From Candidatus Binatia bacterium (GTDB lineage Bacteria > Desulfobacterota > Binatia > UBA12015), in assembly GCA_046327915.1 (NCBI GenBank), contig JAXLXO010000025.1, positions 38,840 through 102,839 on the forward strand: 64,000 bases of DNA, written 5' to 3'. Below are positions 37,601 to 43,600 of this stretch, one piece after another (position 1 is the stretch's first letter; every line of letters starts with the position of its first letter). The position numbers are program-made.

Positions 37601-40600
37601 CGTCGCCGAGCGCGCCGGACAGCCCGCGCGCCAGCGTGCCGTCGCGCACGAGGCGCACCGCGGAGAACACGTCGGCGGCGAACTGCAGCAGGGTCGCGTG
37701 CGGATACGCGGTGAATCCCGCGAGACCGGGGGCCGTGCCGAGTACGCCGAACACGCGCCCCGACGTGTCGAGGGCCTCCGCCTCCGCGAAGCCGTCGGCG
37801 CCCGGCAGCCCGCCGCGCATCGCGTTCACCTCGTCGCGCGCGGTGACGGCGCGGTCGCCGTGCTGGAAGGCGTCGACCGCGAGCACCGCGACGCCGGCGC
37901 GCGCGGCCGTGTCGGCGCTCGCGAAGCCGGTGGTGCGGCTCGCATTGAAGCCGTGGTGCGCGACCACGACGGGGAGATTCGCGCGGTCCGCGTCGGCGGG
38001 GATCGTCAGCAGGAACGGCACCTCCTCGAATGGCCCCGCGACGATGCGTCCGTCCGCATCGCGGCGCACCACACCGGTCTCCTTGCCGGTCCCCTCGACG
38101 AAGCGCGGTGCCGTGAACACGCCGCGCACGACGGCCGCGAGGTGGCGGTGCCCGATCGAGCGCGTGCCGCCGCTGCCCGCGACGGGCGGCACGTCGATGC
38201 CGGGACGATCCTCCAACGGCGTGCCGAGCAGCTCGTCGAGCGCGGCGCCCTCGATCACCGCGTCGACGCGCACGGTCTGCGCGCCCGCATCCTGCGCGAC
38301 CGCGCGCACGCGCTGCACGTCGGCGGTCACGTCTTCGGTGGTGAACGCGGCGAGTGCGACGACGCGCTCGCGCGCGACGCCGGCACGCTCGAGCTCGTCG
38401 AGCGCCGGCGCGATCGCGTCGCGCACGCGCAGCACGAGCGCGTCACCGGTGCGCTCGCCGTCGCGCGCGCGGCGGAAGACGTCGCTCGCACCGAGCGGCG
38501 TGCCGTCGTCGGCGAGCAGGTCGCTCGTGATCGCGGCCGCGTAGCGGCGCGAGCGGTGCAGCGCGATGCCGCGCTCGGGACGGAGCGCCACCACGCCGAG
38601 GCTCGCGTTCCACTCGAGGCGCAGCGGGAAGAGGCGTCCGCGCTCCGGCGACGCGGGATCGACGTCGGCGAGCACGATCGCGTCCGACGGCGACGCCGCA
38701 CGCGACGGATCGTCGGCCGGCAGCCGTCCCGGCGCGAGCGCACCGTCGATCGCGAAGTAGACGTTGCACGTGGCGCAGAAGCCGTCGCGCGCCGCGACCG
38801 TCGCGCGCATCGCGGCGAAGAGCGGCGTGTCGGACAGCGGCGTCGGCAGCGCACCGATCCGCGCAGCACCCGTCGCGTCGCGGTAGAGATCGTTCGGGAA
38901 CGGCACGTCGCCCCAGTCCATCGTCGTGTCGAGCGACGGCGCGAAACGCGCGACCGCGGTCGCCGGCGGTGCCGGTGCGGTCGAGGCGTCACCGCAACCC
39001 GACAATGCGGCGGCGTACGACAGAAGGAGGAGACCCTGGAGGAGGCGGGCAGCGCGCATCGGCGGCGAGTAGCACGGGACCGGCGCGCGAGACCATCGCG
39101 ATTCGCGTACGCGCGTCGGCCAACGCACCCGGACCGCGGGTGACGTGGCGCGCCGCCGTCTGCGACCGCTACGCCGAGCGCGTGAACCTGCTGCTGCTCG
39201 AGCCCGGCGACTTCGCGGCCGACGGAACCGTCCGCATCGGCGGACGCCGTCTCGCACACGTGCGCGGCGTGCTCGCGCCGGAAGCGGGCGGCACGCTGCG
39301 CGTCGGCGTCGTCGGCGGGCGGATCGGCACGGCGCGCGTCGCCGCGCTGTCGGCGCTGGAGCTGGTTCTCGATCCGCCCTCGCTGACCGAGGATCCGCCG
39401 CCGCGTGCCGGCCTCGACCTGCTGCTCGCCGTGCCGCGGCCGAAGGCGCTCGCGAAGCTGCTGCCCGCGGTCGCGTCCCTCGGCGTCGACCGCCTGGTCC
39501 TGCTGAACGCGGCCCGCGTCGAGAAGAGCTACTTCACCGCGGGCGTGCTCGAGCCTGCGTCCGTCGACGCGCTGCTGCGGCTCGGCCTCGAGCAGGCGCG
39601 CGACACGGTGCCGCCGGAGGTGCTGGTGCGTCCGCTGTTCAGACCGTTCGTCGAGGACGAGTGCGACCGGCTGCTTGCGGGAACGGAGCTTCGCCTGGTC
39701 GCGCATCCGCCCGCGGCCGCGCCCTGCCCGCACCGCGAGGACACGCGTCGCGTGGCGCTCGCGATCGGCCCGGAAGGCGGCTGGGTACCGTTCGAGATCG
39801 AGCTGCTGGCGTCGCGCGGCTTTCGTCCGGTGAGCCTCGGACCACGGGTGCTGCGGGTGGAGACCGTCGTTCCGCTGCTGGTCGGGATGCTCCGCTGAGA
39901 TTCTTCCGCCCACGCGCGCGGACACGTTGAAGTTTCCTCTCGTGGCCGCCGAACCCCGTTGTGTCGCCCCCGTGATTGCGCCTTGACCGCGGCGCGCGGG
40001 GTCGGCATCGTCGGCCGGCGTTCTGGCGGAGGGGACGGGGGAAACACCATGCGAATGCTCCATCTCGCGACGATCAGTGCCGGTGTCCTGCTGCTTTCCG
40101 GCACCGCACACGCATCCCTGCACGAGGTGCGCTCCGGCAGCGTGACGCCGGGCACGATCGCGGTCGCGCAGAGCCAGCTGCCGAAGGCGAAGGCGCCCGA
40201 CGCGCGGCTGTTCTCGAACGCGACGCTCGATCCGGCGCGCTGCAACTACGAGTACGTGGACATGTACGGGGCCTGGGTCGTCCGCACCGAGCTGCGGCTG
40301 ACCTGCACTACGCATCAGTAGTAACGAGGGGTCTCGCGACCCCTCGCCCCGTTGGGCGGAGCCCAACGGGTCCCCACTCCCGGCGGTCGCTTCGCTCCGC
40401 GCTCGGCGTTGCCTCGCGTGCACGCGGTGGTGCCGATGTTGGCGATCTGCGCTTTTGAGGACGCCCTCCGCGGTGGCGACGCCCCTTGGCCGTTTGGGCG
40501 AGGTCCGAAGGACTGCACTCCCGGCGGTCGCTTCGCTCCGCGCTCGGCGTTGCCTCGCGTGCACGCGGTGGTGCCGATGTTGGCGATCTGCGCTTTTGAG

Positions 40601-43600
40601 GACGCCCTCCGCGGTGGCGACGCCCCTTGGCCGTTTGGGCGAGGTCCGAAGGACTGCACTCCCGGCGGTCGCTTCGCTCCGCGCTCGGCGTTGCCTCGCG
40701 TGCACGCGGTGGTGCCGATGTTGGCGATCTGCGCTTTTGAGGACGCCCTCCGCGGTGGCGACGCCCCTTGGCCGTTTGGGCGAGGTCCGAAGGACTGCAC
40801 TCCCGGCGGTCGCTTCGCTCCGCGCTCGGCGTTGCCTCGCGTGCACGCGGTGGTGCCGATGTTGGCGATCTGCGCTTTTGAGGACGCCCTCCGCGGTGGC
40901 GACGCCCCTTGGCCGTTTGGGCGAGGTCCGAAGGACTGCACTCCCGGCGGTCGCTTCGCTCCGCGCTCGGCGTTGCCTCGCGTGCACGCGGTGGTGCCGA
41001 TGTTGGCGATCTGCGCTTTTGAGGACGCCCTCCGCGGTGGCGACGCCCCTTGGCCGTTTGGGCGAGGTCCGAAGGACTGCACTCCCGGCGGTCGCTTCGC
41101 TCCGCGCTCGGCGTTGCCTCGCGTGCACGCGGTGGTGCCGATGTTGGCGATCTGCGCTTTTGAGGACGCCCTCCGCGGTGGCGACGCCCCTTGGCCGTTT
41201 GGGCGAGGTCCGAAGGACTGCACTCCCGGCGGTCGCTTCGCTCCGCGCTCGGCGTTGCCTCGCGTGCACGCGGTGGTGCCGATGTTGGCGATCTGCGCTT
41301 TTGAGGACGCCCTCCGCGGTGGCGACGCCCCTTGGCCGTTTGGGCGAGGTCCGAAGGACTGCACTCCCGGCGGTCGCTTCGCTCCGCGCTCGGCGTTGCC
41401 TCGCGTGCACGCGGTGGTGCCGATGTTGGCGATCTGCGCTTTTGAGGACGCCCTCCGCGGTGGCGACGCCCCTTGGCCGTTTGGGCGAGGTCCGAAGGAC
41501 TGCACTCCCGGCGGTCGCTTCGCTCCGCGCTCGGCGTTGCCTCGCGTGCACGCGGTGGTGCCGATGTTGGCGATCTGCGCTTTTGAGGACGCCCTCCGCG
41601 GTGGCGACGCCCCTTGGCCGTTTGGGCGAGGTCCGAAGGACTGCACTCCCGGCGGTCGCTTCGCTCCGCGCTCGGCGTTGCCTCGCGTGCACGCGGTGGT
41701 GCCGATGTTGGCGATCTGCGCTTTTGAGGACGCCCTCCGCGGTGGCGACGCCCCTTGGCCGCTTGGGCGAGGCCCGCAGGACACCACTCCCAGCGGTCGC
41801 TTCGCTCCGCGCTGGTGACGTTCGACGTACTTCCGCCGTGAACCCCATTGTCTCGGTTGAACGGGCATTTTAAATGTACATTCAAATGGAGTCGGGACAG
41901 GCGACGCGGGCGGCGGAGACGCGGAGGCGATTGCTGGAGGCGGCGGTCGAGGTATTCGCGGAGGAAGGGTTCCGCGGGGCCACGCTGCAGGAGATCGCGC
42001 GGCGGGCGGACGCGAACGTCGCGTCCACCGCGTATCACTTCGGGAACAAGGAAGGGCTCTACGCGGCGGTGTTCGAGTACGCGGAGCGACGCATGGCGGA
42101 GCTGCGGCCGCCGCAGGACGACGCGGAGGACGCGGCGCTGCCGGCGGAGGAGCGGCTGCGGCGGCACGTCACGGCCTTTCTCACGCGGCTGCTCGATCCG
42201 CGGCGGCCGGCGTGGTTCGCGCGGCTGCTGGCGCGCGAGATGATCGAGCCGACGCCGGCGCTCGACCGGCTGGTACGGCGGCGCATGCGGGCCAACCACG
42301 AGCAGCTGGCGGCGATCCTGCGCGACCTGCTCGGCTCGCGCGCGACCGACGAGGACGTGCGGCTCTGCACGCTGAGCGTCGTCGCGCAGTGCACGTTCTA
42401 CCGCCACAGCGCGCCCATCGTCGCGCGGCTGTATCCGGAGCTGGCGCCGGCTCGCGAGATCGAGCGCATCGCGGACCACGTGACGCGCTTCTCGCTCGCC
42501 GCGGCGCGGGGCCTTCGCGGGCGCGGAAAGGAGCGCGGCTCGTGAGCGACGGAATCCCGCGGCCGGTGCGTTCCACCGGCATGACGCGGCGACGCTGGAT
42601 CGTCCTCGCCGTGCTCGCAATCGCGGCGCTCGGCGGCTGGCGGATCGCATCCACCGCGGCACGCGACGACGGCGCCACCGCGCACGGACGCGAGGCGGCG
42701 GCGCGCGCGATCCCCGTCCGCGCCGTCGCGGCGCGCGACGGCGACGTCCACGTCTGGCTCGACGGCATCGGCACCGTGACGGCGCTCGCCACCGTGACCG
42801 TGCGCACCCGCGTCGACGGCGAGCTCGTCGCCGTGCACTTCCGGGAGGGCGACACCGTCCAGCAGGGAACGCTGCTCGCCGAGATCGACCCGCGGCCGTT
42901 CAACGTCCAGCTGGAGCAGGCGGAAGGCCAGATGGCGCGCGACCGTGCGCTGCTCGAGAACGCGAAGGTCGACCTGCAGCGCTACCGGACCCTCGTCAAG
43001 CAGAACTCGGTGCCGAAGCAGCAGCTCGACACGCAGGACTCGCTGGTGCGCCAGTACGACGCGGCCCTGGCGAGCGACCAGGCGCAGATCGACCAGGCGC
43101 GCCTGCAGCTCGACTATGCGCGCATCACCGCGCCGTTCACCGGACGCCTCGGTCTCCGCCTCGTCGATCCGGGCAACATCGTCCACGCCAGCGACACGGG
43201 CGGCATCGTCACGCTCACGCAGGTGGCCCCGATCGCCGTCGTCTTCACGCTGCCGGAGGACGACCTGCCGCTGCTGCTGCCGAAGCTCCGTGCCGGCACG
43301 CCGCTTCCCGTCGAGGCACGCGACCGCGACGGCCGGAACGTGCTGGCGACCGGGCACGTGCTGACGATCGACAACGCGATCGACCCCGCGACCGGCACGA
43401 TCCACGTCAAGGCCGAGTTCCCGAACGCGGACGGCGCGCTCTTCCCGAACCAGTTCGTGAACGCGCGCCTGCTGCTGGAGGTCCGCGAGAACGCGACGCT
43501 CGTGCCGTCGGCCGCGATCCAGCACGGCAACGACGGCGCGTTCGTGTACGTCGTCGGCGCCGATCAGGCCGTCGAGCTGCGCAAGATCGCGCTCGGTCCC

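Follow-up and report, generated by a model that had tools for sequence, protein, structure and literature searches.

A 141-bp tandem array beside a conserved hairpin module in a Candidatus Binatia bacterium is probably a largely neutral, noncoding minisatellite

The DNA examined here is a 64,000-nt stretch of contig JAXLXO010000025.1 from a Candidatus Binatia bacterium (hereafter "the window"; GC content, 71.9%). It contains one large tandem array, located between the gene of a small predicted secreted protein, here called sec90, and a tetR-led efflux operon. The gene order around it is an rsmE-like methyltransferase, sec90, the array, a TetR/CecR-family regulator, a membrane fusion protein (MFP), a resistance-nodulation-division (RND) pump, a second RND pump with an outer-membrane factor (RND-OMF), a 232-amino-acid (aa) membrane protein on the minus strand, and an amidohydrolase on the minus strand. 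The relatives of these neighboring proteins are annotated as Candidatus Binatia bacterium or as metagenome-assembled genomes (MAGs) of the old "Deltaproteobacteria." Tandem Repeats Finder (TRF) placed the array at 40375–41813, with a period of 141 bp, 10.2 copies, 99% matches, and a score of 2836, and reported no other large array in the window. The features from sec90 to the end of the array are as follows.

40049–40321, plus strand: sec90, a 90-aa predicted secreted protein with a signal-peptide-like N-terminus and a GC content at third codon positions (GC3) of 0.89; the array and the hairpin module lie in its 3′ region.
40325–40346, plus strand: hairpin 1 (hp1), CGAGGGGTC-TCGC-GACCCCTCG; 94% of cells paired in nine sequences, with one covarying pair.
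40348–40370, plus strand: hairpin 2 (hp2), CCCGTTGGGC-GGA-GCCCAACGGG; 97% of cells paired, with three compensatory pairs, e.g., GTT/AAC versus AAC/GTT.
40375–41643, plus strand: copies 1–9, nine base-identical 141-bp units (TRF and base-by-base comparison).
41644–41784, plus strand: the tenth, terminal unit, of ancestral type, with five substitutions, all in unit positions 119–141.
41785–41813, plus strand: a partial eleventh copy of 29 nt (head′) with one mismatch, a direct repeat of the head of each unit.

The base-by-base comparison confirmed the description given in the initial annotation, in which nine copies were identical to the nucleotide and the tenth diverged only near its end. The degenerate remnants that it had reported at both ends were also found, on the left as a weak "tail"-like remnant of the unit (40340–40374, detected with BLAST) and on the right as the 29-nt partial copy. 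Each unit contains a head, a degenerate third hairpin (hp3), one copy of the 12-bp palindrome CGCGTGCACGCG, a spacer, and degenerate hp1′/hp2′ sequences; the CGCCC-N11-GGGCG element claimed for the unit is present as well. The array had been said to follow a terminator-like hairpin at a distance of about 10 bp; a hairpin does precede it, but there are two (hp1 and hp2), and the array starts 5 nt 3′ of the second. At the other end, the distance to the AT-rich region upstream of tetR, previously given as about 45 bp, was measured as 43 nt to the motif TTGAAC. The units are contiguous, identical, and without spacers, and no cas domains occurred among the 30 window proteins scanned with Pfam, in agreement with the earlier statement that this is not a CRISPR locus. 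The overall plan is an intact module (copy 0), approximately 10 degraded copies, and a final head.

The module itself lies directly 3′ of the sec90 stop codon and comprises hp1 (22 nt), hp2 (23 nt), the head, hp3 (a third GC hairpin of ~21 nt), and the palindrome. The module reads GAGGGGNC-loop-GNCCCCTC in hp1, CCCC(GTT/AAC/ATT)GGGC-GRA-GCCC(AAC/GTT/GAT)GGGG in hp2, and CACTCCC-GGCGGTCGCTTCGCTCCGCG or CCCACTCCC-GCGSTCSCTTYGSTCSG in the head. In an alignment of nine module sequences, 88% of the cells were paired overall (73% in hp3), five pairs carried compensatory double changes, and the covariation score was reached by 0 of 500 column shuffles. The 60 nt at 40319–40378, covering hp1–hp2, folded at −38.1 kcal/mol (z = −4.9). 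The module is kept after sec90 in the relatives L017, L034, L038, L039 (a Binatia MAG), L041, and L042, whatever gene comes next, and is absent in L033 and L023; in L029–L032 and L035–L037, the contigs stop inside hp1/hp2. Together, hp1 and hp2 are better conserved than the sec90 protein, and the CGCGTGCACGCG palindrome occurs in the module of only part of the clade. No Rfam family matched at the gathering threshold in the window, and none matched at E ≤ 1 in 40250–41950. By analogy with repetitive extragenic palindrome (REP) elements, the probable role of the intact hp1–hp2 pair is that of a 3′ terminator or stabilizer for the sec90 transcript.

When the module was described by a covariance model (R1), each 141-bp unit matched it at 36.5 bits (E = 5e−7) with the stems hp1′/hp2′ partly broken, and the relationship between unit and module in a MAFFT alignment agreed with R1. 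Each 141-bp unit thus derives from the whole module as a degenerate duplicate in shifted register, and we infer that stable hairpins have been lost from the amplified copies. One 42-mer of the unit, searched for as an exact match, had no occurrence in 185,579 species-representative genomes. A 23-mer of the head, CCCGGCGGTCGCTTCGCTCCGCG, had exact matches in two otherwise unrelated JGI metagenome contigs (L021, 2349–2371, minus strand; L022, 13–35, plus strand), against a rough chance estimate of ~0.2, and beyond the 23-mer these contigs had nothing in common; the match could be due to a small conserved motif or to coincidence in DNA rich in GC.

A 1.4-kb array with a 47-codon period resembles a gene, and five of its six frames are indeed open throughout, as the initial annotation had pointed out; the remaining one, on the plus strand, has a TGA. 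The GC content by codon phase in the unit is flat (0.64/0.72/0.77), and the flanking genes have a GC3 of 0.89–0.95 and a GC content of ~0.5 at second positions. The range of 72–77% previously assigned to every frame thus holds for two phases (0.72 and 0.77), but the third is lower (0.64). The open frames run from 40352 or 40455 to 41818 or 41873 and show no coupling to either the stop of sec90 (40321) or the start of tetR (41886). In sister lineages, the homologous arrays repeat every 71 bp (L041; 3.0 copies, 98% matches) or every 116 bp (L034; 2.0 copies); because these periods are not multiples of three, the equality of 141 with 47 × 3 is a coincidence. In Pfam searches of all open frames, the only hits were summed scores over ten partial matches that were each below threshold (SopE_N, Urocanase_N, and Tom5), with no qualifying stretch other than two for DUF5568, itself below its cut-off; all of these hits were rejected as artefacts. 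A chimeric query of all six translations against 5.8 billion proteins had a single match, the spurious open reading frame (ORF) P0001 from the same locus. In relation to the single copy in L017, there were 22 substitutions, split 5/12/5 over the codon phases, which is not significant, and gene callers had called no gene across the element in L011, L017, or L034. Judged by its composition and its homologues, the array is noncoding. The minisatellite option offered in the initial annotation is supported by the flat codon-phase GC, the 71- and 116-bp homologous periods, and the absence of protein or Rfam relatives, and the low rank given there to a coding role is correct and has become much firmer with these periods.

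P0001 itself, a public 390-aa "protein" (L028, 8001–9173), arose when the array, as it stands in an assembly of error-rich long-read type, was translated with hops between frames.

The history of the array can be read from its relatives, among which copy numbers and periods differ. In L017, whose flanking genes are 95% identical, one unit lies between the left tail-like remnant and the right head′ (~1.45 copies), with the head/head′ arrangement matching that of the window, and the first duplication therefore predates the split of these lineages. The terminal copy in the window carries the L017 base at four of the five positions that distinguish it from the interior copies; the interior bases are therefore derived, and the amplification of a single variant was recent. 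From L017, the interior copies diverge by 15.6% and the terminal copy by 12.8%, matching the 13.8% at four-fold degenerate sites of the amidohydrolase gene; the unit body evolves at a roughly neutral rate. Four forms are found at the locus in different lineages (141 × 10, 141 × 1.45, 116 × 2, and 71 × 3), and the locus has been amplified independently in sister lineages, with differing unit lengths.

As a separate observation, sec90, which matched no Pfam family and whose exact protein sequence is present in many metagenomes, showed only 1 difference in 273 nt from L017 (192–464) and none at 58 four-fold sites. In contrast, the amidohydrolase, a few hundred bases away in L017, differs at the above 13.8% of such sites. 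This near-identity points to a recent recombination tract or to an unusual constraint at the nucleotide level.

To the right of the array lies a segment that varies among close lineages, with the following features.

41814–52254, several genes on both strands: the variable segment of 10.4 kb (TetR, MFP, RND, RND-OMF, and 232-aa membrane protein), absent in L017.
41857–41885, plus strand: the AT-rich tetR upstream region, with TTGAAC followed by the palindrome AATGTACATT (41873–41882); conserved in L011 and L034.
41886–42545, plus strand: the TetR/CecR-family regulator (Pfam TetR_N and CecR_C), with a conserved ATG at 41886 and an alternative ATG at 41874.
51531–52229, minus strand: the 232-aa membrane protein, without a Pfam family.

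In L017 (compared at 686–714), head′ is followed after ~10 nt by the stop codon of the amidohydrolase gene, corresponding to the window from 52255 onwards, and the unit is joined directly to sequence matching window positions 52271–54141. The interval 41814–52254 is therefore a 10.4-kb insertion or deletion with the array at its left edge. No integrase or transposase was found at the edges of this segment, and no junction repeats were found at its right edge. Downstream of sec90, the gene content differs in every lineage examined, with the upstream synteny kept; the locus marked by the module and array is thus hypervariable and prone to recombination.

Within the tetR upstream region, a scan with the consensus sigma-70 promoter gave no site. 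The perfect palindrome AATGTACATT is nested within a larger imperfect palindrome, TTTAAATGTACATTCAAA, and overlaps the first in-frame ATG (41874). This upstream ATG has no equivalent in L034, and tetR probably starts at the ATG at 41886. The upstream region is likely a promoter/operator, and with the start at 41886, AATGTACATT would be a likely autoregulatory operator. Further downstream, the second RND pump and its outer-membrane factor occupy one frame with no stop between them (46866–51425, plus strand; 1519 aa), whose product would have an ACR_tran domain, then a lipoprotein-like LLASGC motif, and OEP; in a 70%-lineage relative (L038, 12700–15738), the same arrangement is called as one 1521-aa gene. 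It is either a genuine fusion or a frame with an in-frame internal start.

The module, as distinct from the array, occurs a second time in the window.

10288–10368, minus strand: the second module copy (hp1, hp2, and head, with hp3 to ~10262), supported by BLAST, R1 (96 bits), and folding.

This copy follows the stop codon of a gene for a dynamin-family GTPase by 6 nt and lies upstream of cyaY; each of the two module copies thus comes shortly after a stop codon and has the same orientation as the gene before it. The hp1 pattern occurs twice in the window, compared with 0.02 occurrences expected by chance. In L044, a 126-kb contig with a 91%-identical CyaY, the orthologous spacer (9858–10000) is without the module and holds unrelated sequence, and no module was found in 40 kb of the L044 genome; the exact CyaY sequence of the window had no database record. 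Altogether, two module loci were found in ~265 kb scanned. Dispersal of this kind, on the sequence evidence, is REP-like behavior.

Taken together, these findings show that a full-length duplicate of the module was already present in the common ancestor with L017, leaving a 112-bp segment between 29-bp direct "head" repeats. Replication slippage or unequal sister-strand recombination between the direct repeats head and head′ would then have expanded one derived variant, very recently, to nine identical interior copies, with the terminal copy keeping the ancestral bases. Old edge copies around a homogenized interior are what unequal exchange or slippage between direct repeats classically produces. 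The main consequence would be a spacer varying from 0.1 to 1.5 kb between sec90 and the tetR-RND promoter at a recombination-prone junction. With a probability of roughly two in three, we consider the array to be a largely neutral, noncoding tandem amplification resembling the BIME-2 type of bacterial interspersed mosaic element (BIME) or a variable-number tandem repeat (VNTR), and we propose no sequence-specific function for it.

Several observations weigh against this interpretation. Conservation in relation to L017 is higher in the head (0 differences in 31 nt) and in hp1/hp2 (2 in 53) than in the unit body, and parts of each unit could therefore be constrained. The recurrence of amplification at one locus could be explained by selection and not only by mutational bias. 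The metagenome contig L011 has only 2.2 copies, exactly the form expected of a collapsed short-read assembly; consensus polishing may account for part of the perfect identity among the nine copies, and another sample has a 1-nt variant in the penultimate copy.

The second option in the initial annotation, an array of protein-binding sites or of small structured RNAs, gained no positive support: the folding of the unit is unremarkable, no Rfam family matched, and near-matches to CGCGTGCACGCG outside the array occur in the window at about the chance rate. Nevertheless, its regulatory half deserves to be weighed, in the form of a cis-regulatory or architectural element that presents ten identical sites (the palindrome or the head repeats) to a DNA-binding protein, or of an insulator that varies in copy number and tunes tetR-RND efflux expression; TetR/CecR, a nucleoid protein, or gyrase, as at BIMEs, would be candidate binders. 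The position of the array 43 nt upstream of a promoter-like region, the conservation of the head and palindrome between lineages, and the recurrent amplification are what such an element would lead one to expect, and BIMEs bind IHF, gyrase, and PolI (PMC3333891). However, the head, hp3, and the palindrome are also found in L017, L039, L041, and L042 without an adjacent tetR; this speaks against a role specific to tetR. The chance-level frequency of the palindrome and the neutral divergence of the unit body also count against the idea, and the operator-like palindrome of tetR, AATGTACATT, is unrelated in sequence to that of the unit. We regard a cis-regulatory role as unlikely. A more specific candidate, an array of TetR operators, was rejected since the element also occurs without an adjacent tetR.

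An enzyme could also have built and maintained the array, if the module is a mobile REP- or REPIN-like element whose tandem copies are made by strand transfer by a RAYT (REP-associated tyrosine transposase)-like or other transposase, a mechanism that has been proposed for the amplification of BIMEs. The two unrelated loci in the window, both gene-oriented and just after a stop codon, fit with such mobility, as do the empty second site in the relative with the 91%-identical CyaY and the conservation of hp1 and hp2 above that of the sec90 protein; moreover, TnpA-REP strand transfer can assemble tandem BIMEs in vitro (PMC3333891). Against this, only two loci were found in the DNA scanned, no transposase occurred among the 30 window proteins, the hairpins all have the same orientation without REP/inverted REP (iREP) pairs, and the GTAG/CGTC tag is inconsistent. 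Simple recombination between the 29-bp direct repeats suffices to account for the array, and the involvement of a dedicated enzyme seems improbable to us. A bolder extension would make the three-hairpin module an undescribed mobile REP-like family of the candidate class Binatia, the distal part of which is repeatedly amplified at a hotspot by an element-specific enzyme or by selection, so that array length, heritable and rapidly variable, would tune read-through or insulation between sec90 and the RND efflux operon under TetR control. This is a speculative proposal that we likewise doubt.

It is still less probable that the copy number or the perfect identity is an artefact of assembly or polishing. 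Identical 141-bp units extending over 1.4 kb are beyond short-read resolution, polishing homogenizes repeats, and the 2.2 copies in L011 would fit with this explanation. Nonetheless, at least 10 independent sequencing runs yielded short contigs with the exact TetR protein of the window, and 9 of 10 Logan contigs (k = 31) share the same start base, 30 nt (k − 1) before the first base specific to the terminal copy. A de Bruijn graph that branches at a repeat with two or more copy types would be expected to leave this signature; at least two copy types are thus demonstrably present in at least 10 samples. On the left side, the contigs with the exact 90-aa sec90 protein stop exactly 30 nt into the first unit. 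A separate assembly of the locus, L028 (ENA ERZ1714334 contig_3170; 68 kb), is ~87% identical with many indels and therefore looks like a noisy long-read assembly. When its locus was aligned to models with k interior copies, the best score was obtained at k = 9 (1868), compared with 1836 at k = 8 and 1696 at k = 10; nine interior copies plus the terminal copy is the structure of the window itself, and an array of ~10 units is therefore supported by a second assembly. The window contig, at least 64 kb long, spans the array, which implies long reads. The over-expansion during assembly against which the initial annotation had cautioned is largely excluded by the contig edges and the L028 model fit.

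There is very little to be said for the array as a set of small structured RNAs or as one long structured noncoding RNA. The hairpins of the parent module are well supported and may act at the RNA level, and the array lies in the likely 3′ untranslated region of sec90. However, the minimum free energy of the unit equals that of shuffled sequence on both strands (z ~0), the in-unit hairpins are degraded, Rfam gave no match at the threshold above, and no promoter-like or terminator-like sites were found per unit; inspection of the unit by eye for a sigma-54 promoter gave only off-spacing near-matches. Finally, a 47-aa × 10 repeat protein or multi-core peptide precursor is hardly credible, despite the 47-codon period, the five open frames, a minus-strand ATG ORF spanning 41868 to 40315, and 9 synonymous changes among 18 changed codons in frame +2 against L017, given that open frames are expected by chance in DNA of 71% GC and that composition, homologues, periods, substitution phases, and gene calls all speak against it as described above.

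Other origins were considered and rejected. A plasmid centromere or iteron array (sopC-like) does not suit the housekeeping context (RF3, SelO, CyaY, and RsmE), and no ParA, ParB, or Rep was found among the scanned proteins; more generally, the 30 window proteins contained no transposase, integrase, ParAB, or Cas domains by Pfam. The element also had no match in collections of plasmid, phage, and viral contigs, against a plasmid, phage, or viral origin. Elsewhere in the window, tandem paralogous genes occupy 59078–63998 with a spacing of ~2416 bp and 78–88% DNA identity (ORFs 59088–61805 and 61456–63954 on the minus strand, with a third copy beginning at the window edge), and an 18-bp tandem repeat (2662–2723; 3.4 copies, 82% matches) lies inside the GC-rich ORF 1644–3152 (minus strand), presumably as a coding repeat of low complexity.

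These results document a structured intergenic repeat element in the little-studied Binatia, at a site that amplifies independently in several lineages with periods of 71, 116, and 141 bp. The unstable DNA lies at the edge of a 10.4-kb efflux-pump segment that is present or missing among close lineages, and the array would therefore be usable as a strain marker (VNTR) and is a candidate recombination hotspot. It also calls for caution in annotation, since its length, period, and open frames give it the appearance of a gene, and P0001 exemplifies the spurious tandem-repeat ORFs already in public protein databases. The array suggests no new biological mechanism.

REPs are extragenic imperfect palindromes of 20–40 nt with a GTAG/CGTC foot tag, which alternate as REP and iREP in BIMEs, are typically present in more than 100 copies, and are associated with RAYT, a Y1 transposase. 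In Escherichia coli, BIME-2 elements form tandem clusters whose copies are homogeneous at any one locus and differ in number from strain to strain (PMC3333891), and REPs, which generally lie 3′ of genes, are believed to work as hairpins in RNA (PMC3733652). An E. coli BIME-2 or atypical BIME cluster is the closest analogue of the present array, although membership in that family is not established. Like these, the array and module are extragenic and immediately downstream of genes, the module consists of short GC-rich imperfect palindromes of REP size with linkers at two loci, and the tandem copies of roughly 100-nt units are near-identical within the locus and differ in number and form between lineages. 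Unlike in BIMEs, the hairpins of the module and of the array units all have one orientation, are mutually unlike in sequence, and show no REP/iREP alternation, a feature that defines the family. As for the tag, hp1 is preceded by (A/G)ACGA, giving CGTT or CGTC on the other strand depending on the copy, and there is no conserved GTAG; a GTAG at the sec90 stop codon is missing at the second module site and in L034. Further differences are that two module loci are known so far (in the 64-kb window), that no RAYT occurred among the 30 proteins scanned, that the amplified copies have degraded hairpins, and that the host is an uncultured Binatia-like bacterium rather than an enterobacterium.

Minisatellites of the mycobacterial interspersed repetitive unit (MIRU)/VNTR type are intergenic repeats of tens to ~100 bp between co-directional genes, with diverged edges and a homogeneous interior. 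The present array shares the intergenic position, the co-directional genes, and the diverged edge and homogeneous interior copies, and its length is presumably variable; however, its 141-bp unit is longer than MIRU units, and it contains no small ORFs overlapping the flanking stop and start codons. [quoted passage not shown] In a survey of 119 bacterial genomes, 2.7% of satellites exceeded 1.5 kb and most long-unit satellites were coding, with noncoding long-repeat families spread through a genome noted mainly in Leptospira (Subirana & Messeguer 2019, PMC6749651). The array resembles such long-repeat prokaryotic satellites in being noncoding, in its long unit, and in its length of ~1.45 kb, but differs from the Leptospira type in that the single-copy parent module, and not the array, is dispersed. 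A noncoding array of 1.45 kb is uncommon but of a known kind.

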